Shown: positions 15,544-53,144, counted from the first letter of the stretch. The stretch is 64,000 nt of DNA from an uncultured bacterium (GCA_965613025.1 CBFDUE010000002.1:13974-77973), one strand, 5' to 3'. Notes: generated by a model not told the origin, from the letters alone. A program made the numbers and translations.

Positions 15544-15613
15544 AAGAACCTCCCAACCCATTAAATATTTAAACTTTATCTGCCAATTGCATAGAGATTA
15601 CAATATCCAGCAT

Positions 15614-15733
15614 GAGACCTTTGCATAACCCCCTTTTACACTGGGGGTTATACCCCCAGATCCCCAAAGATTTACTGAAAATAACCCATAATTACAGCAT
15701 TTTTCTGAGAGCTTTGAAAAATTCAAAGCTCTC
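15614..15733 (+). mobile_element. MITE-like intergenic repeat, copy 1 (orientation A)
   Basis: 120 bp. The left end is GAGACCTTTG and the right end is the hairpin GAGAGCTTTGAA-AAA-TTCAAAGCTCTC. An internal TGGGGGT-TAT-ACCCCCA hairpin is present. It is flanked by direct CAGCAT (15608-15613) and CAGCAT (15734-15739). Confidence 0.8.
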
Positions 15734-15965
15734 CAGCATATTAGTCGTTTCTCCTACCTGCTTTGCTTTTTATCTAAAAGATTAATATGGTTTGAACTTA
15801 TTATCTCTAAAACCGATTTGTCAAATAGGAAATTTCTATAGTTTTTTGGATCTCTATAGGCAATTTCTTTAAAAATGAAGATTAGGGATTTACATGGCTG
15901 GGATCCTATTAATCATTTTTACAAAAATGATCATTTATGGTAATTGCGCCTCCATATCCTTTCTC

Positions 15966-17045
15966 TCATGGCAGTTCGGGAGGGTATTGTTTTATCTTTT
16001 CCGCACCTTTTAAGACGGCAAGCCCGCCGTATGCCAAGGCCTCCAGTTCGTCTTCGCCTGGAAACACCAGAACATTTCCAAGAAAACCCACCCGTTCCTT
16101 GATTTCTTCAACAATGGTCTCAGAGCGTGCAAGATTGCCTGTGAGAACCACTGCATCTATCTTCCCCTTCAATACAGTGGCCATAGAACCTATATCCTTG
16201 CTTACTTGGTAAGCCAAGGCCTGGAGCACCATACGGGCATTTTGCTCCCCCCTTTTGGCCCTTTGTTCCACTTCCACCATATTATGGGTCCCTAAATAAG
16301 AGGATACCCCTCCTTGAGTAAATAGCTTGCTTTGCACTTCCTTATGAGTGAATTGTCCTGAAAAACAGAGTTCCAAAACATCAAGCAGGGGCAGAGAGCC
16401 TGTCCGCTGGGGTGTAAACGGCCCTTCGCTTAGCCCGTGAGATCCATCTATGATTCTACCCTCGCGGTAGGCAACTATGGTGATTCCCCCGCCAAGGTGG
16501 GCTATCACAAAACGGGCCTTCTTATAATCTATATTGAGTCGAATGGCAGCACGTCGTGCAGCAGATTTCTGGTTCAGCACATGAAAGGCGGCCCTTCTTT
16601 CAATCCCCTTTAGTCCCGAAAACCTGGCAATATCATCCATTTCATCCGTGGAAGGGGAATCATAAATAATGGCCTCTGTTTTATGGCGCCGGGCTATTTC
16701 AAGGGCCAGCTCTGGCCCAACATTGGAAGGATGCCAGCCATACTTACAGGATCGGAGATCCTGAACCATAATTTCATTGATCAGGTATGCGCCGCTTTCC
16801 ACAGGCCGGGTCAGAGCACCTCTGCTTACAACAAGGTGCAAGGGGGCCAGTTTCATTTTGTGTTGAGTCAAGACCCCTTCTAAGGTCTTACGATGCAGTT
16901 CCATCCATGCCTCATAGGTATCCATGCCCCGGAGTCTTTCTGGACTATGGTTATGGTCCTCACGAAAGATCTGTTTTTCTCCCTCAAATAGTCCCACCTT
17001 AGTGGAAGTGGAGCCAATATTTATGACAAGAATTCGATTCATCAT
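15966..17045 (-). CDS. buk: Butyrate kinase
   Basis: The N-terminus MMNRILVINIGSTSTKVGLF and overall ASKHA-fold Buk similarity support the call. The start overlaps the upstream stop (ATGA). Confidence 0.85.
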   Translation of the reverse strand: MMNRILVINIGSTSTKVGLFEGEKQIFREDHNHSPERLRGMDTYEAWMELHRKTLEGVLTQHKMKLAPLHLVVSRGALTRPVESGAYLINEIMVQDLRSCKYGWHPSNVGPELALEIARRHKTEAIIYDSPSTDEMDDIARFSGLKGIERRAAFHVLNQKSAARRAAIRLNIDYKKARFVIAHLGGGITIVAYREGRIIDGSHGLSEGPFTPQRTGSLPLLDVLELCFSGQFTHKEVQSKLFTQGGVSSYLGTHNMVEVEQRAKRGEQNARMVLQALAYQVSKDIGSMATVLKGKIDAVVLTGNLARSETIVEEIKERVGFLGNVLVFPGEDELEALAYGGLAVLKGAEKIKQYPPELP

Positions 17046-17923
17046 ATTCTTTTTCCCTGCAAAAGCCCCAATACAATATTATGTAGCCACGATTCTGGGG
17101 AGTCCGCAGGTGAATGTATAATTACAGGTGCCTTTGTTCCTGCCACAACACCTGCCACCTCAAACGGCCCCAGGCATCTCACAAACTGGGTGCTCAAAAG
17201 GGCAGAATCCAGATCAGGAAACAAGTAGATATCCACATCTCCAGGCACCGGGCTTTTAATACCCTTATAATAGGCAGCTTCGGCCGATTCTGCGTTGTCC
17301 ATGGCCAATGGGCCTTCCACAATGACATCGCCCAGTTGGCCCCTCTCTGCCATTTTGGAAAGCGCAGCCGCATCCACAGTAGAGGGAATGGCAGGATTGA
17401 CTATCTCAATAGGGCCAAGGGCAGCCACCTTTGGGTGCTCTATGCCAAGGGTCTCGGCAACACTGGCCGCATTTTGTATGATCCCCGCCTTTTCCTTCAG
17501 GCTGGGTAAGCTATGGATCAGGGTATCAGTGAACAATGTGAGTCGGCCGTCTCTGATAGAACGAAAGACGCTTACATAGCTGATCACCCTGGTTCCATTG
17601 TCTGTGGCAGTAAGATGATCCAGAAATGAGAGTAGATCTCTGTCCAATGTGCCCGTATCCAGAATTGCCTCCACCTTACCGCTTTCCAACAATTCCAAGG
17701 CCACATCTCTTGCCTCTCTTATGCCCGCATTAGGTAAAAGGAGGTCTATCTGGGGGTGCAATCCTACTAAAGGTTGTCCACAGGCAACAGGATCAATCCA
17801 GCCGTGATCACGCGCTATCAGGATTGCCTTAAATGCAGCAGAATCGCCACCTCCTGTTATGGCCACTCTTCTTCTTTTAAAGGATTTTGCAAGCTCAAGA
17901 ATCGTGTTAAGACTTACATCCAT
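17042..17923 (-). CDS. Phosphate acetyl/butyryl-transferase family protein (divergent paralog)
   Basis: 293 aa with PTA_PTB-like similarity, for example PKVAALGPIEIVNP and LAMDNAESAEAA. Confidence 0.6.
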   Translation of the reverse strand: MDVSLNTILELAKSFKRRRVAITGGGDSAAFKAILIARDHGWIDPVACGQPLVGLHPQIDLLLPNAGIREARDVALELLESGKVEAILDTGTLDRDLLSFLDHLTATDNGTRVISYVSVFRSIRDGRLTLFTDTLIHSLPSLKEKAGIIQNAASVAETLGIEHPKVAALGPIEIVNPAIPSTVDAAALSKMAERGQLGDVIVEGPLAMDNAESAEAAYYKGIKSPVPGDVDIYLFPDLDSALLSTQFVRCLGPFEVAGVVAGTKAPVIIHSPADSPESWLHNIVLGLLQGKRI

Positions 17924-17931
17924 ACCTGCTT

Positions 17932-18837
17932 TTACCTCCTACCAGCAGTTGCCAGAACAAGGCCAAGGGCAAGGTTTTTGATGCGCACCTCGTAGCCGTC
18001 CGAACGTGATGGGGTAAGGATAATCATGCCCCCACCAACAGTAACACATTGCCGTATGCCGGCCATAATGTGGTCAATCGTCTTGACCAGAATGTTGCCC
18101 GCATTAATGTGAGGCACGAGAAAGATGTCAGGAAACGTTTCAGGGTTGAGACCGTCACCCTTGGCCAGTTCCAGTAGGTCTGTATAGGGCAGGAACTCAC
18201 ATGGCCCGAATTTACCTGCAGCCGCACCCTGTCTCAGTATGCGTGCTTCTTCCAGGGCTTGGGAAGATTCCTCTCGAAGATGCTTAGCGGCAAGTACCAT
18301 CACACGGGGAGATGCATAGCCCAAGGATCGAAATACCTGTATAGCGTTGGTCAAGATTTTTTCCTTGGAAGTCAGATCAGGCGTAATGTTTAAGCCAGGA
18401 TCTGTAATTGCAAAGATCTTTTTGATAGCAGGGAGGTAATGAAAGCAGATAGCGCATGGGGTCTGTTCAGGGGCCAGGCGTTTCGTAACACGGATCAGAG
18501 AGCGAAAGAGGTAGGCGGTGAGTATGTTTCCTTTTACGGCAAAGCTCACTTCATTATTTACCATCATATCAAGGCATAGATCAGCCGCTTCTTGGGGGTC
18601 AACCCTCTGGATCATCTCCATGTTACTAATGGGTATTCCACTCTGTTGAGCTAAGGAAATGATACGCTCCCTATCACCAACAAGCACCGGAGCAATGAGA
18701 CCCTCTCTCATGCCATCCATCACAGCATGGAGCACATCTGTATTATAAGGAAATAGGATAGCAGCTCTTTTAGCACCGATCTCTTTTGCCCGATTCATAA
18801 TCTCATCAAATGTTCTTATCATCTCCTCTCTCTCCAC
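17932..18837 (-). CDS. ptb: Phosphate butyryltransferase
   Basis: 301 aa with typical Ptb layout: FDEIMNRAKE...AAILFPYN...GLIAPVLVGD...PRVMVLAA...NAGNILVK. Confidence 0.8.
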   Translation of the reverse strand: MEREEMIRTFDEIMNRAKEIGAKRAAILFPYNTDVLHAVMDGMREGLIAPVLVGDRERIISLAQQSGIPISNMEMIQRVDPQEAADLCLDMMVNNEVSFAVKGNILTAYLFRSLIRVTKRLAPEQTPCAICFHYLPAIKKIFAITDPGLNITPDLTSKEKILTNAIQVFRSLGYASPRVMVLAAKHLREESSQALEEARILRQGAAAGKFGPCEFLPYTDLLELAKGDGLNPETFPDIFLVPHINAGNILVKTIDHIMAGIRQCVTVGGGMIILTPSRSDGYEVRIKNLALGLVLATAGRR

Positions 18838-21317: not shown

Positions 21318-21507
21318 ACCTCTAAGAATTGTCAGCAGATATTTCATTTTGAAATGGTCTTAGAAGCCTAATAAGGTATCAAGAATTTTATTGACATGCT
21401 AAAAAACTCCTATATTGAGCAAAAGATCAGAAGATATCTTTTTAAGATATTTTTCAAAATGAAACCAACTTTATGAGGGGTAGGGAAGCTCTTTTAAGTA
21501 CCAGGTC

Positions 21508-21627
21508 GAGAGCTTTGAATTTTTCAAAGCTCTCATAAAAAGGCTGTAATTATGGGTTATTTTAAGTTAATTTTTGGGGGTCTGGGGGTGTAACCCCCAA
21601 TGTAAAAAGAGGTAATGCAAAGGTCTC
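21508..21627 (-). mobile_element. MITE-like intergenic repeat, copy 2 (orientation B)
   Basis: 120 bp reverse complement of the copy 1/3 consensus. It is flanked by direct CAGGTC (21502-21507) and CAGGTC (21628-21633). Confidence 0.8.
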
Positions 21628-21725
21628 CAGGTCATAGAATATACCTACCTAAATTTTATAAGGAGTTTAGAGTCAATCTCTCTTGAATCTTACTATATCA
21701 AATAATGTTGACCTTTCAAGCCAAA

Positions 21726-22826: not shown

Positions 22827-22839
22827 GAGGTAAAAAGAG

Positions 22840-34212: not shown

Positions 34213-34572
34213 CTATTCTTTTATAAGAGAAAATCTGATTCCATGATCAGTAACCACTATAAATCTATCCTTAATTTTATTTTTATATCTGTTTAATAAC
34301 TCTCTAAGAACCTTTATTTTATTAGGAAATCTTTCATCATCTAATCTTAGAAGGATGATACCCTTATGGGGTCTTCCCTCTCTATATACTTTAGTTCCAA
34401 AGTCTTTATCACTGGTAATTAAAATCCATTCTTCAGTATAGGCCTTTTCTAAAATCTTATCATCGTCCAAACCTCTTTCTTGCTCATAAACAGAAAATAC
34501 TTCATATCCTTCTTCTCTCAACCAGTTAGCTACATTTGGTCCAATACACTCATCAACCATAAATCGCATCAA
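34213..34572 (-). CDS. DUF5615 (PIN-like) putative toxin
   Basis: MRFMVDECIGPNVANWLREEGYEV...ILITSDKDFG matches the DUF5615/Mut7-C-like pattern. It overlaps the upstream DUF433 gene by 4 nt. Confidence 0.7.
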   Translation of the reverse strand: MMRFMVDECIGPNVANWLREEGYEVFSVYEQERGLDDDKILEKAYTEEWILITSDKDFGTKVYREGRPHKGIILLRLDDERFPNKIKVLRELLNRYKNKIKDRFIVVTDHGIRFSLIKE

Positions 34573-36952: not shown

Positions 36953-37852
36953 ATGCAGATTGTTCAACTATCTAAGCTTGTGGATATGGACAACCCCTAT
37001 AGAGTAATGGAAGAGGTCAAAACGATTATAAGGGATATATATGGAGATTATGATTTTAATATAATTGATCAGGTATTCAGTGACACTCTGGATCTCTTCA
37101 TGGGTAGATATCCTGGCTATAAGGCATGCAATTGCAGATATCATGATCTTATTCATACCACCGATACTCTTCTTGCAATGGCAAGACTTATCCATGGGGC
37201 AGTGCTAAATGGGATGAAATTCAGCACTAAAGATCTGGATCTTGGCATATCCTCTGCCCTTCTTCATGATACAGGATATATACAAAAGCTTGGTGATGAT
37301 GAAGGAACTGGGGCCAAATATACCCTTGTGCATATTGATAGAAGCATTGAGTTTTCAAAGAGATATCTTCCAAGGCTGGGATTTTCTGAAAGGGATTTCA
37401 GATATGTGGAATCAATACTTAGATGCACGGGATTGAATGTAAGAATAGAGGAGGTAGAGTTCTTCTCAAAAGAGCATGAACTTTTGGGTAAGATGCTTGG
37501 AACCGCTGATCTTATGGGACAGATGGCATCCAGAACCTACTTAGAGAAGCTCCCGTATCTATACAGTGAATTTAAAGAGGGCAAGGTGCCAGGGTATGAA
37601 AGTGAGTTTGATCTGATAAAGAAGACACCCGATTTTTATAGATGGACACTTAAGAGATTTAAAGAGGAATTTGATTCTGTCTATAGATTTATGAAAGATC
37701 ATTTTGAAAAGAGATGGGGCATCAGAGATGATCTATATATGATAACCATTGAAAAAAACATTAATTATTTGGAATATATCATTAAGGAACATCCCAAAGA
37801 TTATAGAAGATATCTTAGAAGAAGATTGGACAGAGTGGTGCTTAAGAGATAA
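36953..37852 (+). CDS. HD-domain phosphohydrolase-like protein
   Basis: RYHDLIHTTDT and ALLHDTGY motifs are present. The ORF is 299 aa. Confidence 0.55.
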   Translation: MQIVQLSKLVDMDNPYRVMEEVKTIIRDIYGDYDFNIIDQVFSDTLDLFMGRYPGYKACNCRYHDLIHTTDTLLAMARLIHGAVLNGMKFSTKDLDLGISSALLHDTGYIQKLGDDEGTGAKYTLVHIDRSIEFSKRYLPRLGFSERDFRYVESILRCTGLNVRIEEVEFFSKEHELLGKMLGTADLMGQMASRTYLEKLPYLYSEFKEGKVPGYESEFDLIKKTPDFYRWTLKRFKEEFDSVYRFMKDHFEKRWGIRDDLYMITIEKNINYLEYIIKEHPKDYRRYLRRRLDRVVLKR

Positions 37853-37854
37853 TC

Positions 37855-37973
37855 GAGAGCTTTACATAACCCTTTTCACACTGGGGGTTACACCCCCAGA
37901 CCCCCAAAAATTAACTTAAAATAAGCCATAATTACAGCTTTTTTCTGAGAGCTTTGAATTTTTCAAAGCTCTC
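37855..37973 (+). mobile_element. MITE-like intergenic repeat, copy 3 (orientation A)
   Basis: 119 bp that fill the whole gap between two convergent stop codons (2 nt spare on each side). AATC abuts both ends. Confidence 0.8.
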
Positions 37974-37975
37974 AA

Positions 37976-39205
37976 TCACATGGGTCTTACCATCTTTGTA
38001 AGATCCCACATGGGAATGAATATGGCCAGTGCAAAAAATCCTATGACCCCTGCCAATCCCACAGTAAGCACAGGCCCTATGGCCTCAGATAGTCTGTTTA
38101 CCTGATATGCCATCTCCTCATCATAATGGGCGGCAATAACCTTTAACATATCATCCAATCTTCCACTCTCTTCTCCTATGGCTATCATATTGATGACCAT
38201 GGGTGTAAAATATCTGGAACTTTTTAGAGGATCTGATATCCCTTGTCCTTCTTGAACCTTAGCCTTTAGTGATATGAATTCCTTTGATATTGCTGAATTT
38301 CCAATAATTCCTGAAAGTATATCAAAACTATCCAGTATTCCGATTCCGCTTGCCTGAAGTATGGCAAATATGCTTGCAAATCTGGACATGGTAGCCTTAA
38401 TAAAGAGTGGACCTAATACGGGAATCCTCAACAGTTGGGTATCTCTAAGGAGTCTTCCCTTTTCTGTCTTAAAGTATGAGAGGGTCAGAAGGATTCCGAC
38501 TATAATCGCTGTCAAGATAGCATACCAGTAATTGGCTAAAAAGTTATAGAGAACCATGCATATCTTTGTAGGAAGTGGAAGTTCAAGGCCCGCCCTTATA
38601 AATATGTTAATAAATTTGGGCACAACAAAGGTAAGTAATATGAAAAATGCTACAGCCAAAAATACCGTTACCATTATTGGATATTGAAGTGCAGAACGTA
38701 TATCAGATCGTATCTTATGTTCATGCTCTATTATGTATATGAGTCTGTCTAAGACATCCACCAGATTTCCACTTGTCTCCCCTGCCTTTATCATCTCACA
38801 ATAAAGCGATGAGAACACCTTAGGATGCCTTTTAAATGCCTCATACAACGATGATCCCTCTTGAAGATCCCTCACTATCTGGCCTGAAACCCTTTTCAAT
38901 AAGGGATTTTCTGCTTGATATTCCATTATCTTAAATGCATTTATTATTGGGATTCCAGAATGGAGCATGGTTCTAAATTGTTTAGTAAATAGGATAAGAT
39001 CTGTATCTTTTATCTTACCAAACCTATAGCTCAGTCCCTTTAATGAAAGAGAGATCCCTTTTGATTCCCCTTCTCCTCTTATTATGCTCGGGATAAGCCC
39101 CTTTTGAACAAGGAGATTTTCAGCCATCTCCTTTGTATCTGCCTCTAAGACACCATTTACAGTATTGCCACTTTCATCTATTGCCTTATATGTAAATCTT
39201 GGCAT
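37976..39205 (-). CDS. Type IV pilus/T2SS platform protein (PilC/MshG-like, T2SSF)
   Basis: 409 aa with two T2SSF repeats and three TM segments. Confidence 0.85.
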   Translation of the reverse strand: MPRFTYKAIDESGNTVNGVLEADTKEMAENLLVQKGLIPSIIRGEGESKGISLSLKGLSYRFGKIKDTDLILFTKQFRTMLHSGIPIINAFKIMEYQAENPLLKRVSGQIVRDLQEGSSLYEAFKRHPKVFSSLYCEMIKAGETSGNLVDVLDRLIYIIEHEHKIRSDIRSALQYPIMVTVFLAVAFFILLTFVVPKFINIFIRAGLELPLPTKICMVLYNFLANYWYAILTAIIVGILLTLSYFKTEKGRLLRDTQLLRIPVLGPLFIKATMSRFASIFAILQASGIGILDSFDILSGIIGNSAISKEFISLKAKVQEGQGISDPLKSSRYFTPMVINMIAIGEESGRLDDMLKVIAAHYDEEMAYQVNRLSEAIGPVLTVGLAGVIGFFALAIFIPMWDLTKMVRPM

Positions 39206-39216
39206 ATCTTAAGGCC

Positions 39217-40926
39217 TCATACCATAACAGCAGATGCTGCCTCTTCAAATGTGGTAATGCCTTTTAGAACCTTAGATAGGGCATCTTCCTTTAAGGTCCT
39301 TAATTTCCCTGCGTCCACTGCCACACGGGTGATTTCCTGTGAAGATCTTCTCTCAAGTATCATCTGCTGAATCATCTCATCGTTGACTAATACCTCAAAT
39401 ATGCCAGTTCTTCCCCTATATCCTGTGTTCATACACTGGGGGCAGCCCTTTCCCCTTTTAAATTCCATACCAACATAATCAGGGATACCCCAATTCTTTA
39501 AGACCTGTTCAGAAGGGATATAGGTTTCAATGCAGTTGGGGCATATCTTTCTTACCAATCTCTGTGCAAAAGATACAAGTAAGACTGATGAGACCAAAAA
39601 GGGTTCAATTTCCATATTAATTAATCTGGTAATTGCTCCTGCTGCATCATTTGTGTGCATGGTGCTCAGCACCCTGTGCCCTGTAAGGGCTGCCTGAACA
39701 GCAATGGATGCAGTTTCAGCATCCCTTATCTCTCCTACCATTATAACATCGGGATCCTGTCTTAAAATGGATCTAAGGGCACTTGCAAATGTCATCCCTG
39801 CCTTTCTGTTAAGCTGCACCTGCTTTATCTTATCTATACGATATTCCACAGGATCTTCCACAGTGATAATATTTATATCCGGACTATTGAGATTCTGTAA
39901 TATGGCATACAGAGAGGTGCTCTTACCTGAGCCTGTGGGTCCTGTGCTGAGTATCATACCATAGGGTTTTTTAATTGCATCTTTTAATTTCTTTTGATCT
40001 TCCTCACTCATACCCAGCTCTTCCAGACTGTAAATGCCGCTACTCATATCCAGAAGTCTCAATACAAGATGTTCCCCGTAGATCGTGGGGATTGTGGATG
40101 CCCTTACATTTATCTCCTTTCCATCCATTCTGACTGTAAATCTTCCATCCTGAGGAACCCTTGTATTAGCGATATCCATCTGGGCAAGTATCTTTATCCT
40201 TGAAATAAGGGGTAAGAGCATTGCCTTAGGTGGTGCAGGCATATCATGCAGCTTTCCGTCTATCCTGAATCTTACCTGGACATAGTTCTTTTCAGGCCCT
40301 ATATGTACATCACTTGCCCCCTCTCTTATTGCCTGTGATATTATGGAATTTACAAGCCTAACCACAGGGGGGTCCTTTGCCAGATCATGTAAGGATGTTA
40401 CCTCTAAGTCCCTTATATCCTCCTTCTCTGTCTCTTCTTCTGCCCCTCTGTATTGTAGATCTTCCATTCCACCAATAACGCTCATAAGCCCTGTGGTAAG
40501 GCCATAGATAGCTGTCATTATCTGGGTTAGCTCTCTCTGAGAGCATATAACGGGTTCCACCTCCAGATTGGTATGGGTTTCAATGGTATCTAAGGCCTCA
40601 ATATCCATGGGATCAACAGTTGCCACTTTTAAGAGAAATCCCTTTTTCTTGATGGGTGCCACATTATATTTCTGAGCTATTGAGTAAGGGAGGATATTTG
40701 CAAGGCTATTGTCAACTGGATATTTTGAGGGATCATATTTTTCAATCTTAAGCTGTCTGCTTAACATATCAATAATCTGTGACTCCCGCACCACTCCCTT
40801 CTGGATAAGATATTCACCCAGCTTGAGGCCAGCTCTTTTATGTTCTACCAAAGCCTCTTTTAATTGGTCTTCGGTAATAAGACCTTCCTCTATAAGCATC
40901 TCACCAAGTCGCTTTTTCCTCTTCAA
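39217..40926 (-). CDS. Type IV pilus assembly ATPase with N-terminal MshEN domain (MshE/PilB-like)
   Basis: Walker A GPTGSGKST and the tetracysteine CPNC...CPQC are present. The N-terminus RLGEMLIEEGLITEDQLKEAL and KLGEYLIQKGVVRESQIIDML are tandem MshEN c-di-GMP motifs. Confidence 0.85.
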   Translation of the reverse strand: MKRKKRLGEMLIEEGLITEDQLKEALVEHKRAGLKLGEYLIQKGVVRESQIIDMLSRQLKIEKYDPSKYPVDNSLANILPYSIAQKYNVAPIKKKGFLLKVATVDPMDIEALDTIETHTNLEVEPVICSQRELTQIMTAIYGLTTGLMSVIGGMEDLQYRGAEEETEKEDIRDLEVTSLHDLAKDPPVVRLVNSIISQAIREGASDVHIGPEKNYVQVRFRIDGKLHDMPAPPKAMLLPLISRIKILAQMDIANTRVPQDGRFTVRMDGKEINVRASTIPTIYGEHLVLRLLDMSSGIYSLEELGMSEEDQKKLKDAIKKPYGMILSTGPTGSGKSTSLYAILQNLNSPDINIITVEDPVEYRIDKIKQVQLNRKAGMTFASALRSILRQDPDVIMVGEIRDAETASIAVQAALTGHRVLSTMHTNDAAGAITRLINMEIEPFLVSSVLLVSFAQRLVRKICPNCIETYIPSEQVLKNWGIPDYVGMEFKRGKGCPQCMNTGYRGRTGIFEVLVNDEMIQQMILERRSSQEITRVAVDAGKLRTLKEDALSKVLKGITTFEEAASAVMV

Positions 40927-40939
40927 GACCGGGATCCTT

Positions 40940-41896
40940 TCAATCTGTAATATCTCTTAATGATATTAACATATTATCAAAGGATCTTAAAGGGGAAAGG
41001 GATGCATATAATCTGATACAGAAGAAAAAGAGTGCAAGGGCCAATACTATGATTGCTAAGCGGTATATAAGCCTCTTCTTAGGATTCTTATCTATGCAGG
41101 CACTTACAAGTGATCTTCTTACATATCTCTTATCTTTTATAATAAGTGTTAGCATTATCCTATGGCATAGATTAATTACCTTTCTGGGATATCCCTTTGT
41201 AAAACGGTATATTCTTAAAAGGGCTGGAAGAGAAAAGGGAATAGGATCTCTGCCATCCAAAGAGCAACGTCTAAGCCTAAATCTTATCATAGATTTCATA
41301 TCTGAAAAATTCATGGGATTCAGCCTTGCCTGATAGTTTATCCTGTCTTTAAGGTAGGGATATCTCTGCAATATATCATCAAATTCCTGCTGGGCAAATA
41401 TGATTATCTGAAGGAGCTTATTTTCATTGGTTTCATAATTTAAAAGCTCCCTCAATATTTCAAAGCCAAAAGAGGGAAGATTTTGCGCTTCATCAATTAT
41501 AAGAACCACGGTTTTCCCCTTTTCCACTGCGGTATCAAACAGATAATTTTTGATCTTTTCCTTTATCTCCCATTCTCCATCTCCCTCCTCTGTCTTTATC
41601 CCTAAGGCAATGGCTATCAGTTTTAAAAATTCCAATGGCATCTTTGCTCTGGGGTCTAAGATAAGATGGAGATCCATATCGGGGTCCTTTTCTAATCTAA
41701 AGATCAGTTGCCTGGACAGGGTGCTTTTCCCTGTCCCTACTTCTCCTGTTACCACATTTAACCCTCTTTTAAGGCGTATAGATATTTCAAGCATCTGTAG
41801 GATTGATATGTGCTGCTTGGACGGATAGAACATATTAGGATCAGGGCTATTGGAAAAAGGCTCTTTTTGCAATCCTAAGATCTTGTAATAGTCCAC
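40940..41896 (-). CDS. ExeA/MshM-like AAA+ ATPase
   Basis: Walker A GEVGTGKST and Walker B VLIIDEAQ are present, with a C-terminal TM helix. Confidence 0.75.
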   Translation of the reverse strand: MDYYKILGLQKEPFSNSPDPNMFYPSKQHISILQMLEISIRLKRGLNVVTGEVGTGKSTLSRQLIFRLEKDPDMDLHLILDPRAKMPLEFLKLIAIALGIKTEEGDGEWEIKEKIKNYLFDTAVEKGKTVVLIIDEAQNLPSFGFEILRELLNYETNENKLLQIIIFAQQEFDDILQRYPYLKDRINYQARLNPMNFSDMKSMIRFRLRRCSLDGRDPIPFSLPALLRIYRFTKGYPRKVINLCHRIMLTLIIKDKRYVRRSLVSACIDKNPKKRLIYRLAIIVLALALFFFCIRLYASLSPLRSFDNMLISLRDITD

Positions 41897-41899
41897 TTT

Positions 41900-43423
41900 T
41901 TACCTCTCAATGATATGAGGGGTTATAAATATTAGTATATCTTCCATGGTCTTACTTTTCCCAATGGATTTAAATATGGAACCTAAAAGTGGCAGATCCT
42001 TTAGCCCTGGAATCCCACTTTCGCTATGGGTTCTTGTCTCCTTTGACAGCCCACCTATTACAGCGGTCTGCCCATCTTTAAGTATTATATTGGTCTCTGC
42101 CTTCTTAGTAATTATGGTTGGATTATTATTTACTGGATTAGAAAAGTCTAATTCATCTTTATAGGTTACTATCTTTAATTTGATATATTCCTTATCAATC
42201 ACATGGGGAGTAACTTCCAATTTTAAAACGGCCTTTTTCCATTCTATCTCTATGTTTCCCTCCGCACTCACTGTCTGGAAAGGGACCTCAGCCCCGCTTT
42301 CAATTAGTGCTGTATGATTGTCTAAGGTAGTTATGGATGGGCTTGAAAGTATATTCAATTTCCCCTCTCGCTGTAATGCCTGAAGCTGAAAATTCAGTAT
42401 ATATCTTCCCAGTTTTTGGGAGAGATAACCTATGGTAAACCAGCTTTCAGAAGGATTGGATATATCCTTAGATATTGGGAAATTAGCGGTAATTCCCGTT
42501 GTGGGGTCAAGTGCCTCTCCCAGAGGTCTATCTGATATGTTTCCTGTGCTTGCACCTGGTGTTATCCAATAGTTTATATCTTCACCCACATTATGATACA
42601 GCCCACCCCATTGGACTCCAAGCTCCTTAGCGGTTTCTCTATTTGCTTCCACAATATTTGCTTCAATAAGTATCTGAGGGGTGGGTTTATCCAACTTTTT
42701 TATCATGGGAATAACCTTTTCCATATCCGCTCTTATAGCCTCAATAACAAGGGAGTTGGTATATTCGTCATATATAATAGAACCTCTGGGTTTACCCTGT
42801 TTATCCTTGGTTAAGAGATTAGTAAGATTATCTTTTAGCTTTTTGGGGTCTGCAAATTTTACAGGAACTATCTCTGTAATAAGAGGGCCTGTCCGCTCTT
42901 CAATTAACATTTGCTCTCTCTTCTTTGTATCTATCTGTCGGATCTTGAGGTCATGTTCCATCTCTTCTAATGTCATAACCCTGATGATGTTTCCAACCCA
43001 GGAATATTTTAGGCCCAATGTCTTTAAGACAGCATTAAATGCCTGATCCCAGGGCGTGTTATCTATATTTATTGTAAGCTTCCCTTTAACCTTATCACTA
43101 ATTAAGACATTTATATTAGCTGCCCTTGCAAGGGAGCGAATAATTATGGGCGCATCAACCTGGTAGAATTTAAGGGTAATAGGATGGGTGGGCAGGATAT
43201 GCCTTTCCTCTCTTTTTCCCTCATCTACCCCCTTTTTAAGATATACTCCCTCTTCCTTTTTAGCCTTTTTAATGGGCCCTTTCGCATCTTTCTTTTGCTC
43301 TTTCTTTAACATATCACTTAGGCGATGTATGTCTATCTTCTGGTCTTTAAGGTTTTGATTGGTGCAATAAGGTAATATGATTATTAAAAATATTATAAAT
43401 TGAATAGATAAGAGCCTTTTCAT
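41900..43423 (-). CDS. Secretin (PilQ/MshL-like)
   Basis: It has a signal peptide, and the secretin C-domain ends IPGLKDLPLLGSIFKS....ILIFITPHII. Confidence 0.85.
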   Translation of the reverse strand: MKRLLSIQFIIFLIIILPYCTNQNLKDQKIDIHRLSDMLKKEQKKDAKGPIKKAKKEEGVYLKKGVDEGKREERHILPTHPITLKFYQVDAPIIIRSLARAANINVLISDKVKGKLTINIDNTPWDQAFNAVLKTLGLKYSWVGNIIRVMTLEEMEHDLKIRQIDTKKREQMLIEERTGPLITEIVPVKFADPKKLKDNLTNLLTKDKQGKPRGSIIYDEYTNSLVIEAIRADMEKVIPMIKKLDKPTPQILIEANIVEANRETAKELGVQWGGLYHNVGEDINYWITPGASTGNISDRPLGEALDPTTGITANFPISKDISNPSESWFTIGYLSQKLGRYILNFQLQALQREGKLNILSSPSITTLDNHTALIESGAEVPFQTVSAEGNIEIEWKKAVLKLEVTPHVIDKEYIKLKIVTYKDELDFSNPVNNNPTIITKKAETNIILKDGQTAVIGGLSKETRTHSESGIPGLKDLPLLGSIFKSIGKSKTMEDILIFITPHIIER

Positions 43424-44007
43424 TTTAAATTTATCCTTTTTAAGATCTCTTTATCTAAATCTATCTCTTCAATCTCAATATCTTTTTTACTTGGTTTAGA
43501 TAACTTAGCTCCCTCTTTAACATAAGAGGACTGTTCCTTATAGGGAAATTCAAAGGTCTTCTGAGTGATGATATTTTGAATAATTACCTTATTGGGATCT
43601 ATGGATTTAACAACATATTCCTGCATATCTTTTAGCCTCTCTCCTTCTTTATAATCTAAGCCATCTATTATAGCTATCTTTTCTCCGTTATACTCTAAGA
43701 AACCAAAATAGTGCAGTTTAATAACCTCTTGTATCTTTCCCTCTTCTCTTTTCTTTTCCACTTTGACTTTTGGCATCTCAAACGGGTCCTTAGGAAAGGC
43801 AAGTCTTGAGACTTCAATGATATATATCTCTCTATCTCTAATCTTCTTCTTTTCAATCCCTTCTTTGATACCTGAGATAAGTGACTTTATATCATTGCCT
43901 TTCTGGGGCATAGATAATTTCTGTTTTGTACCAAAAAAAAGGCTATATATACCATATACTATGAATCCCAAGGCCACTGCTATTATTATCTTTTCCCTCT
44001 TAGACAT
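43420..44007 (-). CDS. PilP/MshK-like pilus assembly protein (hypothetical)
   Basis: N-terminal TM helix and a C-terminal beta-rich region (KIAIIDGLDYKEGERL..YVVKSIDPNKVII). Assigned by position between the PilO-like gene and the secretin. Confidence 0.45.
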   Translation of the reverse strand: MSKREKIIIAVALGFIVYGIYSLFFGTKQKLSMPQKGNDIKSLISGIKEGIEKKKIRDREIYIIEVSRLAFPKDPFEMPKVKVEKKREEGKIQEVIKLHYFGFLEYNGEKIAIIDGLDYKEGERLKDMQEYVVKSIDPNKVIIQNIITQKTFEFPYKEQSSYVKEGAKLSKPSKKDIEIEEIDLDKEILKRINLK

Positions 44008-44012
44008 ATAAG

Positions 44013-44534
44013 CTATCTCTTATTCTTAAATGCTATCTCCATTACCAGATTAAACTGAGTTATACTATCTTTCTTTCGTATCTCAAATGAAGAGATCCTC
44101 TCTATAAAAGGATAGAATGATATGGAATGGAGGAATCTGCCAAAGTCAGGGAATCTGCCAGCAAGTAATACCTTTAAGTTTATCTTTTCAACCCCTTTTT
44201 CTCTTTTAATCTGAGGAATAAATGAGAGGATCTTTAAATTTGATCCTTTTGCCATCTCCCTTAGATGCGATTTTAAATCAGAGGGGGTATCTACTCCTCT
44301 ATCCTCTATAGAGACAATAGACTGAAAGGGTTTGTATCTGGAAAATTCTTTTTGAAATTCATTATATAGAGGAATAATAGTCTTTTTTTCTTCTATTTTT
44401 CTCTCTATCTTTTCTATCTCTTTTTCAATATGATTCAAGGAGCTCCTCAGGGGGTAGAATCCCACTGCTAAAAACATTGCTATACCGAAAACACATACCA
44501 GAAGGTAATTGATGCTCTCTTTCGGAATATGCAT
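44013..44534 (-). CDS. PilO/MshJ-like pilus assembly protein
   Basis: N-terminal TM helix, a coiled coil and a ferredoxin-like C-terminus, plus operon position. Confidence 0.5.
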   Translation of the reverse strand: MHIPKESINYLLVCVFGIAMFLAVGFYPLRSSLNHIEKEIEKIERKIEEKKTIIPLYNEFQKEFSRYKPFQSIVSIEDRGVDTPSDLKSHLREMAKGSNLKILSFIPQIKREKGVEKINLKVLLAGRFPDFGRFLHSISFYPFIERISSFEIRKKDSITQFNLVMEIAFKNKR

Positions 44535-44537
44535 ACC

Positions 44538-46379
44538 TTATCCTCTAAGGGTCAGGATAAAATAGAGACACCTTCCATAATATGGATCATCCTTCCATTC
44601 CTTTCTATCAAGTCTTATATCACTTAATATGGGAGAGGTTTCAAGATCCATGATATATTGTCCAATTTTGGATTCTGCATCTTCTTCTGAACCAATTGAT
44701 AAGGCTTCAAGCTCTATATCAAATCTACCCTCTCTAAGCATTTCAGCCCTTATAGCTAAGAGCTTTATATGAGATGAGGTAATTCTTGATATTTCATAAA
44801 GAATCGCATTGGGGAGCAATCGCTTTGATGCAGACAGGATTCTATCTTTTATCTTTAATACCTTTACCCCTTGGACCAGGAGGCTATTTTTATTGATATG
44901 GAGCCCATACTGATTGAGTTCTGCCTTTAGATCTTTTAGTCTTTCCTGTCTTCGCTTTTCCACTGATAGCTCATATCTATAGAGACCAAACAGGAAAATC
45001 ATTATTAAGATAAATACAGCAAATATTATTCTGTTTATCTTACGAATATGTTGGTCTTTTTCCTTTTCTCTAAAGGTATAAAGCAGATTTGGGGTATAAC
45101 GATTATGTGAGATAGAAGTTCCAAGACATATGCTCATGGCCTGTCTTTCATCCAATGAATCCGATACTATAACATCTCCTATATGGGGATTAGAGGGATT
45201 GAGAGGATCCATTACCTTACATTCAATGCCCAGCTGATCGCTTATGTATTCTATAAAAGGAGGATACTCACAGAGCCTCCAGCTTAAAAATATGAGGCCG
45301 GCTCTTGGGATTCCAAAGGTAAGGGCACAGTGATCAATGGTTCTTTCTGTCTGACGAATAATCCTCTCTAAGCTTTCAATAGAGATATCAAAGATCTCAT
45401 CTTCAGAATATCCTCTCTGTAGAGCAATTTCTTTATATCTTGGATCTATCAAAGAAAACAGTATCTTTTTTGCCTCATCCATTTCCATATTATCATCTTG
45501 CAAAGATCCCAGGTCCAATATCTCTATATCTTCATCCTCTTCAGATTCAGCACTTTGAATAGGCTTTGCCTTTTCTTTATAGCTTTCAGCTATTGATTCA
45601 ATAATACTGTTGGTGGCTGTCTTAAAACCCCGTGTAAATACTAACTTTCCATCTTTAAATACGTCTATCCTGGAATGATCATTTCCCACATACAGGTATG
45701 CTATGGTTTCATGTTCAATCTCTAACCATCTACTTAAAAACAGATTTTGAATGGCAAATGGAGAAAGGGTAATTCCGTTAAGATGAAGACCTATCCTTTC
45801 AAAAAAGGCTTTTAGATTCTCCACATTATCACGTCTTACCGAATATACCACTGCTCCTATCTTTTCAACTCCTTTATCCATTACTGGACCATGCACAAAA
45901 AAATCGACTATCACCTCCTTCTCATCAAAATTTAACTCCTTCTTTGAAACGAAATACAATGTCTTATTTATTTGAGCTTCGGGAAGCTTTGGTATCCTAA
46001 CATAACGAATCTCCACATCTTCATATGATACAATGGTCCAGATATTGTCCCTTTTCCTGACCCCAAAGTCCTTCAATATCTCTCTTAAAAACTCAATAAA
46101 CAGAGGCTCCTTTCCAATAATATCTTCTGGGATATTATAAGTCCTTAATTTCTTTAATATCAGACCTTTTCCATCTATTCCTTCACAACGGATGATATTT
46201 ACCGAATTTCGCCCGATATCCACACCCACATTTCCCATTCTCTTGGAAGAAAAAAATTCAAACCTCTTTTCCTTATACTTCTTCCTTTCACTTAGGGGGA
46301 TAGCTTCACCTTTATCCCTCAGGATATTCAGCAGTCTTTCAGTGGATGATATATCTTCTGGCAATCTCTTTGACCTCAA
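44538..46379 (-). CDS. PilM-PilN fusion-type (MshI-like) pilus assembly protein
   Basis: Actin-like ATPase N-region (GVDIGRNSVNIIR), a mid TM helix (IIFAVFILIMIFLFGLY) and a PilN-like tail. The start is uncertain: TTG 46379 has no SD. Confidence 0.65.
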   Translation of the reverse strand: MRSKRLPEDISSTERLLNILRDKGEAIPLSERKKYKEKRFEFFSSKRMGNVGVDIGRNSVNIIRCEGIDGKGLILKKLRTYNIPEDIIGKEPLFIEFLREILKDFGVRKRDNIWTIVSYEDVEIRYVRIPKLPEAQINKTLYFVSKKELNFDEKEVIVDFFVHGPVMDKGVEKIGAVVYSVRRDNVENLKAFFERIGLHLNGITLSPFAIQNLFLSRWLEIEHETIAYLYVGNDHSRIDVFKDGKLVFTRGFKTATNSIIESIAESYKEKAKPIQSAESEEDEDIEILDLGSLQDDNMEMDEAKKILFSLIDPRYKEIALQRGYSEDEIFDISIESLERIIRQTERTIDHCALTFGIPRAGLIFLSWRLCEYPPFIEYISDQLGIECKVMDPLNPSNPHIGDVIVSDSLDERQAMSICLGTSISHNRYTPNLLYTFREKEKDQHIRKINRIIFAVFILIMIFLFGLYRYELSVEKRRQERLKDLKAELNQYGLHINKNSLLVQGVKVLKIKDRILSASKRLLPNAILYEISRITSSHIKLLAIRAEMLREGRFDIELEALSIGSEEDAESKIGQYIMDLETSPILSDIRLDRKEWKDDPYYGRCLYFILTLRG

Positions 46380-47251: not shown

Positions 47252-47252
47252 G

Positions 47253-47963: not shown

Positions 47964-47969
47964 ATCCTC

Positions 47970-49796: not shown

Positions 49797-49862
49797 AATC
49801 TTAAACTTCTTAGGAAGGCCCCCATAAACGTTGGGGGCCTTCTTGCCCTCTTTAATATCCCT

Positions 49863-51101
49863 TTATTTAGGCCTTGGATATACAATCTCTGCCACAGCAA
49901 GCTCTGGTGGGCCAATTACAACCTTCTTGCCATTCTGCCACTGGGCCGTTACCATCCCATGTCCTATCTGAATCCCGCTTTTGGGATCTATCTTGGATCT
50001 TCCATAAAATGTCATTATATCCATCTTATTGAGAGCGGCCCTTACTTTATCCGTGCTGAGCGTTCCTGCATTTTCAATTCCCCACTGTAACACAAGCCCT
50101 GCAGCGAATGCCTGTGCACCCCTAAAATCGGTGCTTTTTCCCCATCTCTTTTTATACCATTCATTAAACTGTCTACCCGTTACCTTAGGTCCATACCAGT
50201 TATTAAACTTATTTGGATCTGGTGCATCAATAGGTTCCCATTGAGATGTTGCAATTGTATATGCAGCACCCTTAGGGCCAACCGCACTCCACCATTCCAC
50301 TGTTGAAGGGGCAGAACCCAATGCAAAGAATTTTGTATAGACATTTAACTCTGCTGCCTGCCTTGCAAGAAGGGCTCCATCTTTAAAATGGGAACAGGCA
50401 AGTATTGCATCAGGAGAGAGATTCTTCACCTTACTTAAAAGGGGTGAAAGATCAATGGGAGGAGTGGGATAGACCTCATCAAATACGATCTTAAATCCCA
50501 ACTGCTTGGCCCATCTCTTGATGCCTTTCCTGATAGATAGATTAAACGGATTGTCTTCAGTGATTACAGCAATAGTCTTAATAGGAGGATTGAGTCGGGC
50601 CATAAGCTCCATGGTGCTCTTATAGTAATAGGAAGAGGGTGTAAGAACTCCTATCACATATCTGTATCCCTGTGCCCATATCTTATCAGAGGCGCCACTA
50701 TGAGAGAACATCAACTTTCCATATCTTTCAGTAATTGCGGCAGATGCCAGTGTCAGAGAGCTTCCATATGGACCAAACAGAAAATCCACCTTATCTTCAT
50801 TTATGAGCTTCTCTGTTAGCTTTATAGTGGTGTCCTTGTCACTCTTTGTATCATACCATACCACCTCCACTGGTAGCTTTTTACCCATATCCTTTACATA
50901 GATTCCACCCTGTTTATTAACCCACTCTGCCCAAAGTCTTGCTCCCTGAAGATTCCTCTGTCCAAGCACATCATACTTGCCGGTTAAGGAGATGGGAATT
51001 CCAACCTTGATACTATCTTTAGCATATGAAGGGGTTAAGATTAGAAAAAAGACAAATAAAATTGCCACACCTATCTTTACCATACTAAAAAATCTTCCCA
51101 T
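49863..51101 (-). CDS. Leu/Ile/Val-type periplasmic substrate-binding protein
   Basis: Peripla_BP_6-like. The ATG at 51101 is preceded by AAGGAGGGAG and gives a signal peptide MGRFFSMVKIGVAILFVFFLILTPSYA. The ORF-track start at 51173 is less likely. Confidence 0.8.
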   Translation of the reverse strand: MGRFFSMVKIGVAILFVFFLILTPSYAKDSIKVGIPISLTGKYDVLGQRNLQGARLWAEWVNKQGGIYVKDMGKKLPVEVVWYDTKSDKDTTIKLTEKLINEDKVDFLFGPYGSSLTLASAAITERYGKLMFSHSGASDKIWAQGYRYVIGVLTPSSYYYKSTMELMARLNPPIKTIAVITEDNPFNLSIRKGIKRWAKQLGFKIVFDEVYPTPPIDLSPLLSKVKNLSPDAILACSHFKDGALLARQAAELNVYTKFFALGSAPSTVEWWSAVGPKGAAYTIATSQWEPIDAPDPNKFNNWYGPKVTGRQFNEWYKKRWGKSTDFRGAQAFAAGLVLQWGIENAGTLSTDKVRAALNKMDIMTFYGRSKIDPKSGIQIGHGMVTAQWQNGKKVVIGPPELAVAEIVYPRPK

Positions 51102-51235
51102 ACACACTCCCTCCTTTATTGGGGTTAATAAAGACCTATAAACTACTCCATTGGGGTGCCCATTAATTGACACCCCATACCATCCTAAAACAGAAGATTT
51201 TTACCCCCTAAAGGGAGTATTTACTAAGTAAATTC

Positions 51236-52144
51236 TTATGCAATACCCAGTCTATATTTAAGGGAGTTGAGGGTATTCTTCATGAGCATAGTAATTGTCA
51301 TTGGGCCTACACCACCTGGAACAGGTGTGATCCAGCCGGCGATTTCCTTTGCGGCATCAAAATCCACATCACCTTTAAGAATAGGGATCTTTTTGCCGGT
51401 CTTTTCACTTATCTTTTCACCCACTCTGTTTACTCCTACGTCAATGACGCATGCACCTGGCTTTATCCACTCAGGCTTTACAAGCCCTGGCACCCCTGCT
51501 GCCACTATCAATATATCTGCTCTCTTGCAATGGCCTGCAAGATCCTTTGTTCTGGTATGAACCACTGTGACAGTTGCATTTGCATTGGCACCCTTTTGCA
51601 TCATCATTATGGCGATGGGCTTGCCCACAATATTGGATCTACCCACTACAACCACTTCCGCACCCTCAGTGGGGACACCAGAGCGGACAATCAGCTCCTG
51701 AATTCCAGCAGGTGTGCATGGTGGGAATTTTACCTCACCTCCGCCAATTACCAGTCTTCCCACATTTACAGGATGAAATCCATCCACATCTTTATCAGGA
51801 TCAATGGCATTTATGACCTTCTTTTCATCAATATGCTTGGGAAGGGGTAACTGAACCAGTATGCCATGAATGGTATCATCCTTGTTATACCTTTCAACCA
51901 TAGCCAAGAGGTCAGATTCGGATACATCCTCTGGAAGGTTTTCCTGCACCTCCTTAAATCCCAAGCTCTTAGCTGTCCTTATCTTTGCTGTCACGTAAGA
52001 GACAGAAGCAGGATTTTCACCTACCAATATTGTAACAAGACCTGGAACCACTCCATGTCTTTCTTTTATATCATCCACCTCTTTCTTTATCTCAGCAAGT
52101 ATCTGATCCCTTATCTCTGTTCCCTTTATTATTTTTGCTGCCAT
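51236..52144 (-). CDS. folD: Bifunctional methylene-THF dehydrogenase/methenyl-THF cyclohydrolase
   Basis: Typical FolD sequence: IIKGTEI...PGLVTILVGENPASVSYV...GILVQLPLP...VVVGRSNIVGKP. Confidence 0.9.
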   Translation of the reverse strand: MAAKIIKGTEIRDQILAEIKKEVDDIKERHGVVPGLVTILVGENPASVSYVTAKIRTAKSLGFKEVQENLPEDVSESDLLAMVERYNKDDTIHGILVQLPLPKHIDEKKVINAIDPDKDVDGFHPVNVGRLVIGGGEVKFPPCTPAGIQELIVRSGVPTEGAEVVVVGRSNIVGKPIAIMMMQKGANANATVTVVHTRTKDLAGHCKRADILIVAAGVPGLVKPEWIKPGACVIDVGVNRVGEKISEKTGKKIPILKGDVDFDAAKEIAGWITPVPGGVGPMTITMLMKNTLNSLKYRLGIA

Positions 52145-52320
52145 AGCTAAGATCTCCTTTCTAAAATATTTTTTGAAAGCTCCTTATCATAATGAAACCA
52201 TATTTTCAAGCCCGAAAAGATAAATTATCCCCTTGACATACCCTTCATTTATTATTAGAGATACTAAGCTCCTTGCTCCAGAGATTGGGGCCAAAAAGAA
52301 GTCCAAAAGGAGAAGAGATT

Positions 52321-52659
52321 ATGAGATTCTATGAGACTCTTTACCTATTGAGACCTGATCTCAGTGAAGATCAATATCAGGAACTCTTAAAAAAATACAA
52401 TGATAGGATTACATCCTTAGATGGCATTGTAATCCATGTGGATGAATGGGGGAAAAAGAATCTGGCATATCCCATAAGAAAATTTGAAGAAGGATACTAT
52501 ATAATTGTAAAATACTGCGGAAGGCCGGGGATTGTTCAGGATCTGGAAAAGGAATTTAAATTGGATGAAAATATCTTAAGATACCTGACAGTAAAGCTCT
52601 CTGACAAGGCCGATCCGGAAGAGTTAAAAAAGAGATTTTCAGAAGACAGTTCAGCATAG
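52321..52659 (+). CDS. rpsF: 30S ribosomal protein S6
   Basis: MRFYETLYLLRPDLSEDQ is preceded by AAAGGAGAAG. The ORF-track start at 52273 is an upstream extension. Confidence 0.9.
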   Translation: MRFYETLYLLRPDLSEDQYQELLKKYNDRITSLDGIVIHVDEWGKKNLAYPIRKFEEGYYIIVKYCGRPGIVQDLEKEFKLDENILRYLTVKLSDKADPEELKKRFSEDSSA

Positions 52660-52671
52660 GAGGTATTTTAT

Positions 52672-52920
52672 ATGGTAACGAACCAGAAATTTAGATTTCC
52701 ATTTCATAGAAAGAAGTATTGCAAATTTTGCGCCGATAAGAATCTAAAGATCGATTATAAAAATTATGAGATTCTCTATGATTTTATAACAGAGAGAGGA
52801 AAGATCATTCCAAGTAGAATCTCTGGAACCTGTGCTAAACATCAGAGGATGCTTGCCCTTGCCATTAAGAGGGCAAGGATTGCTGCTCTTCTTCCATTTA
52901 CAACAGCTACATTAAAGTAG
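52672..52920 (+). CDS. rpsR: 30S ribosomal protein S18
   Basis: [10 protein letters not shown]...IDYKN...[30 protein letters not shown]. Confidence 0.9.
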
Positions 52921-52959
52921 GTGGGCCTTGTATAGGTCAAGGATTTCTGATATAGATAA

Positions 52960-53112
52960 GAGAGCTTTGAATTTTTCAAAGCTCTCATAAAAAAGCCGTA
53001 ATTATGGGATATTTTAAGTTAATTTTTGGGGGTCTGGTCTCCGACCCAGAGGGTCATCCGACCAGGAGGGGGGTGTAACCCCCAGTGTAAAAAGGTGTTA
53101 TGCAAAGCTCTC
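52960..53112 (-). mobile_element. MITE-like intergenic repeat, copy 4 (orientation B) with a nested 33-bp insertion
   Basis: 153 bp, flanked by direct AGATAA (52954-52959) and AGATAA (53113-53118). An extra segment (about 53035-53067) is absent from copies 1-3. Confidence 0.8.
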
Positions 53113-53144
53113 AGATAAATAATAAATAGGGGAGAGAGGTATCA

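Follow-up and report, generated by a model that had tools for sequence, protein, structure and literature searches.

Four copies of an inverted-repeat element in the window

We analysed a 64,000-nucleotide stretch of DNA from an uncultured bacterium (GCA_965613025.1, CBFDUE010000002.1:13974-77973), here called the window and numbered from its first letter, in which a first-pass annotation had reported a four-copy element like a MITE (miniature inverted-repeat transposable element). The window is ordinary chromosome, with genes for type IV pilus/type II secretion, an Rnf complex, Lon, DnaB, ABC transporters and ribosomal proteins, and it contains no tRNA gene. All four copies read as reported, at 15614-15733 on the plus strand (copy 1, 120 bp), 21508-21627 on the minus strand (copy 2, 120 bp), 37855-37973 on the plus strand (copy 3, 119 bp) and 52960-53112 on the minus strand (copy 4, 153 bp), a density of 4 per 64 kb window, and a repeat finder recovered the family independently. 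Copies 1 to 3 are of a form termed type A here, and copy 4 is of a longer form, type A+. As had also been claimed, all four are intergenic and the window carries no transposase, in that none of the 50 window open reading frames (ORFs) scanned matches a Pfam transposase family.

The right end of every copy is a 27-bp perfect palindrome with a 12-bp stem and a 3-nt loop, GAGAGCTTTGAA(AAA/TTT)TTCAAAGCTCTC (15707-15733, 21508-21534, 37947-37973 and 52960-52986), the loop of copy 3 being TTT. A palindrome search with three mismatches allowed finds exactly these four sites in the window, against 0 expected from shuffled sequence. At the left, copies 3 and 4 have GAGAGCTTTG, and copies 1 and 2 have GAGACCTTTG, with one mismatch; this end pairs with CAAAGCTCTC at the right end to give terminal inverted repeats that are perfect over 10 bp, or extend to 12 bp with one mismatch, the extremities of the element being GAGAG/CTCTC. 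Type A copies also contain an internal G5/C5 hairpin, CTGGGGGTTAYACCCCCAG (15641-15659, plus strand, in copy 1). Both stems, the terminal one of 12 bp and the G5/C5 one, are predicted by single-strand folding (z-scores -4.8 to -7.6), and the inverted ends, the terminal hairpin and the internal hairpin all stand as first described. The extra 33 bp of copy 4 are two tandem 16-17-nt units, consensus CCTCYGGGTCGGAKGAC, at approximately 53038-53068 on the minus strand.

Each copy is bracketed by a direct duplication, again as first read. CAGCAT flanks copy 1 (15608-15613 and 15734-15739), CAGGTC on the plus strand flanks copy 2 (21502-21507 and 21628-21633) and AGATAA on the plus strand flanks copy 4 (52954-52959 and 53113-53118); the duplication at copy 3 is AATC, 4 bp only (37851-37854 and 37974-37977).

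Taking the orientation of an element as running from its left end towards the hairpin, copy 1 is antiparallel to both of its minus-strand neighbours, a sulphur-transport-like and an acetate-kinase-like gene, and copy 2 is antiparallel to both of its plus-strand neighbours, a radical-SAM aminomutase-like and a TauE-like gene. Exact-protein look-ups with the genes flanking copy 1 returned no record. Copy 3 is inserted precisely where the stop codons of two convergent genes meet, one Npun_R2479-like and one T2SS-F-like (37850-37978; TAA at 37850-37852, TCA at 37976-37978). Removal of the copy together with one AATC yields GATAATCACATGG; here TAA is followed directly by TCA, which is TGA on the other strand, the spacer being 0 bp, and it is the 4-bp AATC duplication that keeps both stop codons intact. 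Copy 4 lies inside the rpsF-rpsR-rplI operon, antiparallel to it, between the genes for S18 and L9, 39 bp past the S18 stop codon and 32 bp ahead of the L9 start codon. ORFs overlapping the elements are short (at most 79 aa) and spurious-looking, and the annotated flanking genes end outside the elements.

A modular family beyond the window

A hairpin-pattern scan of a species-representative genome collection returned at least 71 loci; among the loci listed, 70 belong to the metagenome-assembled genome (MAG) “uncultured Desulfobacteraceae bacterium binchicken_co6_314” and 1 to Desulfobacteraceae bacterium 4484_190.2. The copy number, which the first-pass annotation had proposed to determine, is far above four: the window and the listed loci of the two MAGs hold no fewer than 84 exact hairpins, and further copies are present in metagenome contigs. 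Two more follow shortly after the window's right end, on the same JGI contig (L088:3036-3062 and 4798-4824), the intergenic region being divergent for one copy and convergent for the other. Many of the hairpin matches sit at MAG contig ends. In this uncultured lineage of sulfate-reducing Desulfobacteraceae, one member of which is a MAG from hydrothermal sediment of Guaymas Basin, the element is repeated at high copy number, and since many MAG contigs end in it, it breaks assemblies, so that knowing the element aids assembly and binning.

When a complete element was defined as a hairpin with a left end no more than 400 nt away, 47 were collected at first and 58 later, the 58 ranging from 99 to 224 bp. 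The original length of about 120 bp describes only one subfamily of a family that spans 99-224 bp and includes bare 27-bp hairpins. The conserved left end of about 30 bp is GAGAGCTTTGCATAACCCCTTTTTACACTG, in which most positions are 95-100% conserved across the 58 elements and two are 81-83% conserved, and the conserved right end of about 42 bp consists of TTACAGCTTTTTTCT and, after it, the palindrome GAGAGCTTTGAA-AAA-TTCAAAGCTCTC. This makes three occurrences of GAGAGCTTTG, the terminal motif: a single one on the left and an inverted pair on the right.

Between these ends lies a variable core without coding capacity, of which there are two unrelated kinds, found in 35 type A-like and 20 type B-like elements. 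Type A is the kind found in the window. Type A+ adds to it 1-4 tandem copies of the 16-17-nt unit CCTCYGGGTCGGAKGAC, which is present in 0-4 copies across the family, is placed between the G5/C5 hairpin and AGACCCCC, and constitutes an internal minisatellite within a MITE (besides copy 4, for example L030:3168-3335, L013:697-866 and L061:309-494). The type B core is built around a long GC-rich palindrome, TGTCATTGCGAGCGAAGCGAAGCAATC ... GATTGCTTCGCAATGACA (e.g. L066:4878-5041). In the loci examined the internal modules occur almost only inside MITEs, the one exception being at L040:423, where a single type B core copy (L040:423-520) stands outside any MITE; the type B core may be a separate small repeat that became nested in the MITE.

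About 15 bare 27-bp hairpins have no element sequence alongside. Six of them are flanked by perfect 4-6 bp duplications and several more by near-matches. The element has two direct copies of GAGAGCTTTG, one forming its left end and the other the inner arm of the palindrome, and deletion between these direct copies would leave a bare hairpin that keeps the original duplication. One bare hairpin (L013:145-172, the same as L067:160-187) adjoins a different palindrome, CCACTTCGTAAGTGG / CCACTTACGAAGT, which suggests clustering of small palindromic repeats.

Target-site duplications and empty sites

Perfect direct duplications of at least 4 bp abut both ends of 40 of the 58 complete elements. By comparison, when, within the first 47 elements, the left flank of one was paired with the right flank of another, the chance rate for a match of that length was about 1.8%. 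The duplications differ between copies; their length varies between 4 and 10 bp, 6 bp being the commonest (4 bp, n=5; 5 bp, n=11; 6 bp, n=17; 7 bp, n=2; 8 bp, n=3; 9 bp, n=1; 10 bp, n=1), so the 6-bp duplications first described are right for three of the window copies and wrong as a fixed length for the family.

The first-pass annotation had proposed looking for empty sites, and these were found at two places. MAG contig CAYTXJ010000010 (L054) is 97.3% identical to window positions 40653-46361 and then carries a 152-bp element (L054:5703-5854) flanked by TCAG/TCAG, where the window is uninterrupted (TCTTCTGGCAAT) with a single TCTG (46357-46360). The two sequences are a precise empty/filled pair, and prove that a 4-bp duplication can occur. 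At copy 4, exact-protein look-ups with S18 gave six contigs, of which one (JGI 3300028891) has the element and four lack it (ENA ERZ27227314 k141_41382 and JGI 3300014914, 3300014913 and 3300014886; L078, L079, L081 and L082), with an element-free rpsR-rplI spacer of about 61-63 bp; the sixth ends too soon past rpsR to judge. This second pair is less exact, as the empty spacers differ from the reconstructed window site by a 4-nt GATA indel, the additional GATA lying in the spacer of the window's lineage (52940-52960, compared with L078:2770-2790). Copy 3, including its flipped TTT loop, is common to three other assemblies, among them ENA ERZ27227314 k141_41382 and JGI 3300014886. Since that ENA contig has copy 3 and lacks copy 4, copy 3 is the older and copy 4 a later gain in the window's lineage; the flipped loop of copy 3 (37947-37973), being shared by three other assemblies, is an old change at that site.

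The family has inserted recently, and insertion polymorphisms between strains 97% identical are ready strain markers. The original proposal that the repeat reflects transposition and not a regulatory RNA is supported by copy number, duplications, empty sites and the lack of an Rfam match. Nor did we find either of the patterns that the first-pass annotation had named as speaking against it: copies genome-wide do not lack duplications, and the element is not fixed at orthologous positions with covarying stems.

Target choice

Forty duplicated sites were aligned on their duplication boundaries. The base before the duplication is a pyrimidine in 35/40, the first duplicated base is A in 25/40, the last is T in 26/40 and the base that follows is a purine in 32/40. 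At the left boundary YA occurs in 22/40, against a background of 15.6% (p = 1e-8), and at the right boundary TR occurs in 20/40, against 14.5% (p = 1e-7). Weaker A/T preferences further out are mirror-symmetric, making the signature palindromic over at least 4 bases on each side. The duplications have an AT content of 78%, compared with 60% overall, and the target sequences are diverse, no tetra- or pentanucleotide being shared among the sites. These boundary preferences define a palindromic target, Y^A(N2-8)T^R, that is, one YA step on both strands with flexible spacing. As a pattern of sequence, such a signature would be the expected trace of a symmetric strand-transfer complex acting on bendable pyrimidine-purine steps, and the variable duplication at YA steps constrains the features of the missing transposase.

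On the reconstructed empty sites, 51 of the 58 insertion points are crossed by no ORF of at least 120 aa, and in many cases the nearest ORF end is about 15 bp away or less. The frequent hits in stop codons and in tiny AT-rich operon spacers follow from the AT-rich YA-step target.

Orientation relative to transcription

Flanking ORFs of at least 120 aa were called on the reconstructed empty sites and compared with the orientation of each element. Between co-directional ORFs, 30 of 32 elements are antiparallel to transcription (94%, 15:1; binomial p = 2.5e-7). The bias is seen in both subfamilies and holds at all distances from the neighbouring genes; elements with divergent flanks have none (6 vs 3). 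Inside the window, gene direction and element orientation switch together over less than 6 kb, from copy 1 to copy 2, which shows that orientation tracks transcription and rules out a replication-strand bias as the cause. Seen also inside operons, the essential rpsF-rpsR-rplI among them, this near-absolute antiparallel orientation is a clean natural experiment.

Base composition offers a possible reason. The plus strand of the element, leaving aside the hairpin, is rich in C (C 2133 vs G 1278), whereas the host sense strands are rich in G, both in genes (G 13232 vs C 9687) and in co-directional spacers (G 528 vs C 335; CCCC 5 vs GGGG 17). A sense copy would therefore put an unusual C-rich, G-poor tract in the mRNA, one that, judged by its sequence, would resemble a Rho-loading site and an anti-Shine-Dalgarno sequence, and it would also place a stable hairpin beside the downstream gene. 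In the favoured orientation the mRNA instead reads the hairpin and then AGAAAAAAG, an A-run. The coding strands of the window are strongly purine-loaded more generally, with A 17473 vs T 15657 in addition to the excess of G, and the sign of the GC skew follows gene direction; such purine loading is typical of thermophile-like genomes. The orientation skew shows which inserted strand a purine-loaded transcriptome tolerates.

A scan for outward promoters passed no site on either strand of the element, and the best candidate found by hand, TTCAAA-N16-TGTAAT, was rejected since it is without the conserved A at position 2 of the -10 hexamer. At copy 4 the favoured orientation has the left end reading AAAAAGGGGUUAUGCAAAGCUCUC in the mRNA (53097-53145), a Shine-Dalgarno-like run followed by an AUG that opens a 9-codon mini-ORF stopping at the rplI Shine-Dalgarno sequence; both the run and the mini-ORF may be coincidence.

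Given the symmetry of the target signature, selection acting on copies once inserted is probably what caused the orientation bias.

A model for mobility and its alternatives

These observations are best read as an undescribed MITE family that a transposase, probably of DDE type, mobilises in trans. Apart from a parent insertion sequence, which was not found in the sequences searched (see below), the family has every MITE feature tested, being small (under about 500 bp) and non-coding, with inverted ends, duplications, many copies and empty sites, and that it is a mobile MITE family is highly probable. What distinguishes it is the variable-length duplication at YA steps, the asymmetric three-motif ends with their bare-hairpin derivatives, and the 15:1 antiparallel orientation. 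In the model we favour, a transposase supplied in trans, most likely of DDE type, would bind the terminal motif and join the element to a staggered break, each target strand being cut at a flexible pyrimidine-A step. A stagger of 4-10 bp, usually 5-6 bp, would be followed by gap repair, giving flanking duplications of variable length. Insertion would be expected to be unoriented, the target signature being symmetric, and selection would then remove those copies in which the C-rich strand, ending 3' in the hairpin, became part of host mRNA, leaving 94% antiparallel among copies between co-directional genes. The bare 27-bp hairpins would most simply be deletion products formed between the two direct GAGAGCTTTG copies.

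Several findings weigh against this model. The search suggested earlier for a full-length insertion sequence (IS) with these termini came back empty, as neither such an IS nor a transposase was found in the window or in 433 kb of MAG loci, which makes the catalytic class a guess even if a DDE-type enzyme is on balance the likely one. A spread of 4-10 bp in the duplications of one family is unusual for DDE transposases, and 18 of the 58 elements have no clear duplication, some of these showing near-matches or one-base offsets. As to the orientation bias, occlusion of ribosome-binding sites by the hairpin is ruled out as the sole cause, since the bias persists at distances above 200 bp and in elements whose nearest start codon is hundreds of bp away, and a terminator-like hairpin with a T-run in the sense orientation is present at only 20/58 sites. 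Finally, three bare hairpins between co-directional genes have the loop in the orientation opposite to that predicted for deletion in situ (n=3).

The search for an autonomous partner went further than the IS itself. None was found in four metagenome contigs, in IMG/VR (0 hits) or in PLSDB (only chance hits, E = 0.3), and an all-against-all megablast of the loci gave no long repeats. Orphan left ends in the loci proved to be contig-end truncations or, in L067, a chance match inside a HIT-family gene, and a search for the terminal 10-mer in inverted pairs 600-3500 bp apart with a duplication gave one weak chance match only. A metagenome scan with a left-end pattern that skips both known cores, the source of the four contigs, yielded four further variants of the MITE and nothing else. 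To the right of the window, no transposase was found on one contig that extends it; the corresponding look-up at the left end gave no record. Searches of full-text literature with the terminal strings matched unrelated primers only, and a literature search on MITEs in sulfate reducers was likewise negative. To our knowledge, no family in the ISfinder table joins GAG... ends with a 4-10 bp duplication. A toxin-antitoxin-like DUF433 / PIN-like (DUF5615) pair in the window, at 34213-34572 and the adjoining small ORF, is unrelated to the MITE.

The alternative that survives best, unlikely as we think it, takes the 27-bp palindrome as the primary mobile unit, with two 12-bp inverted ends around a 3-nt loop, and the 99-224-bp forms as composites that recruited an extra left end, either pair of ends being usable. 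The bare hairpins would then be the basic unit, and the perfect duplications at six of them, with near-matches at several more, would record their own insertions; yet deletion between the 10-bp direct repeats yields an identical product with its duplication kept, and duplications are rarer at bare hairpins (6/15) than at full elements (40/58). The loop might likewise be taken to show a unit that turns over alone, as it is AAA in 40 of the 58 complete elements and inverted to TTT in 11, and as its orientation in the three bare hairpins noted above defies the expectation for deletion in situ. Loop inversion is expected anyway from intrastrand template switching in palindromes (quasipalindrome mutagenesis), which is the likely source of the inverted loops in our analysis, and transposon ends 3 bp apart could hardly form a paired-end complex on duplex DNA.

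A second alternative keeps the MITE and sets its orientation at insertion, by a machinery that reads the direction of transcription through RNA polymerase, R-loops or nascent RNA. Such polar insertion would account for 30/32 antiparallel elements whatever the distance to the neighbouring genes, and no sequence feature common to both subfamilies fully explains why the sense orientation should be harmful. We nevertheless regard it as improbable, because a target that is palindromic for at least 4 bases either side speaks for a strand-transfer complex that is symmetric and unoriented, because divergent intergenic regions are unbiased, and because the favoured orientation matches the G-over-C bias of host sense strands, as selection predicts. 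Less probable again is an enzyme of an undescribed kind that combines these departures, cutting at pyrimidine-A steps with a free 4-10 bp stagger and inserting the element in one set direction with respect to local transcription; the 15:1 skew would then be mechanistic, not selective, and the 27-bp palindrome alone a sufficient substrate.

We give very little credence to REP/REPIN-like or IS200/IS605-type elements moved single-stranded by a Y1 (HUH) transposase such as RAYT, in which the bias would be one of strand-specific insertion. The prominent terminal hairpin, the high copy number and the failure to find a DDE transposase would suit such a mechanism, and strong strand bias is a hallmark of single-strand transposition. 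Y1 transposition leaves no target-site duplications, however, and those observed here are real, being confirmed by empty sites, which refutes this reading; the targets are diverse, with no common tetra- or pentanucleotide, and symmetric in signature; and the orientation follows local gene direction, flipping within 6 kb, instead of the replication strand. Least probable of all is a conserved structured RNA, terminator or regulatory motif at fixed positions, for even though the predicted hairpins are stable, the orientation relative to transcription is strict, many copies lie no more than 30 bp from gene ends inside operons and a T-rich tract follows the hairpin in 20/58, the copies are polymorphic in presence and absence with duplications, have no Rfam match at gathering thresholds or at E-values up to 1, carry an A-run after the hairpin in the favoured-orientation mRNA and hence are no intrinsic terminator, and have interchangeable cores that are unrelated between subfamilies.

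Comparison with known repeat families

REP sequences and REPINs, which are associated with RAYT, are short and very abundant extragenic palindromes, and the bare 27-bp hairpins are REP-like in this respect; REP/REPIN sequences lack target-site duplications and bear, at one palindrome end, a conserved tetranucleotide tag, GTAG or CGTC (PMC3116915, PMC3733652), whereas the family described here has duplications and no tag. Membership of REP/REPIN is ruled out by the duplications, confirmed by empty sites, and by the GAGAG/CTCTC ends. The IS200/IS605-derived PATE elements, which have subterminal hairpins at both ends and insert without duplication 3' of a fixed tetra- or pentanucleotide, are excluded by a hairpin at one end only and by diverse duplicated targets, and intrinsic terminators and Rfam RNAs by the lack of an Rfam match and by AGAAAAAAG following the hairpin in the favoured orientation, where an intrinsic terminator has a U-run after a GC-rich hairpin. 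The SDR repeats of Nostoc punctiforme (Elhai et al. 2008) are reportedly palindromic units of 21-27 nt, seemingly mobile and nested in larger repeats. The bare 27-bp hairpins are similar to these in description; they differ in being identical to the end of a larger MITE and in being explicable by deletion between direct repeats.

The minisatellite of type A+ has a parallel in BrickBuilt, a MITE from Porphyromonas gingivalis, which is strictly intergenic and likewise has, between small inverted ends, an internal minisatellite that varies in copy number (PMC4596501). The BrickBuilt unit is 23 nt long and makes up most of the element (PMC4596501), while ours is 16-17 nt, is present in 0-4 copies and only in type A+, and the ends of the two elements are unrelated.

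ERIC (IRU) sequences of Enterobacteriaceae and Yersinia are palindromic, MITE-like, about 127 bp long and co-transcribed in operons, with documented orientation-dependent effects on mRNA in Yersinia, which are the best precedent for selection on orientation (PMC2229807, PMC3049150, citing De Gregorio et al. 2005). ERIC is one long imperfect palindrome, whereas the present element folds only locally, in its terminal and internal hairpins, and it differs also in a far stronger orientation skew and a variable-length duplication.

Chunjie, a MITE from Geobacter uraniireducens (a member of a related bacterial group), resembles the present family in having dozens of copies with conserved inverted ends and direct repeats, copies both in operons and between genes, and many partial copies, as summarised in PMC10969869. 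Its size variants are given there as 178-235 bp (PMC10969869), compared with 99-224 bp here. The likeness is one of general features, with no sequence similarity claimed, and the family reported here is set apart by its asymmetric three-motif ends, perfect terminal palindrome, 4-10 bp duplication and 94% antiparallel orientation. Current ideas on MITEs are not overturned by these features, and the family is, in the end, a well-behaved MITE.

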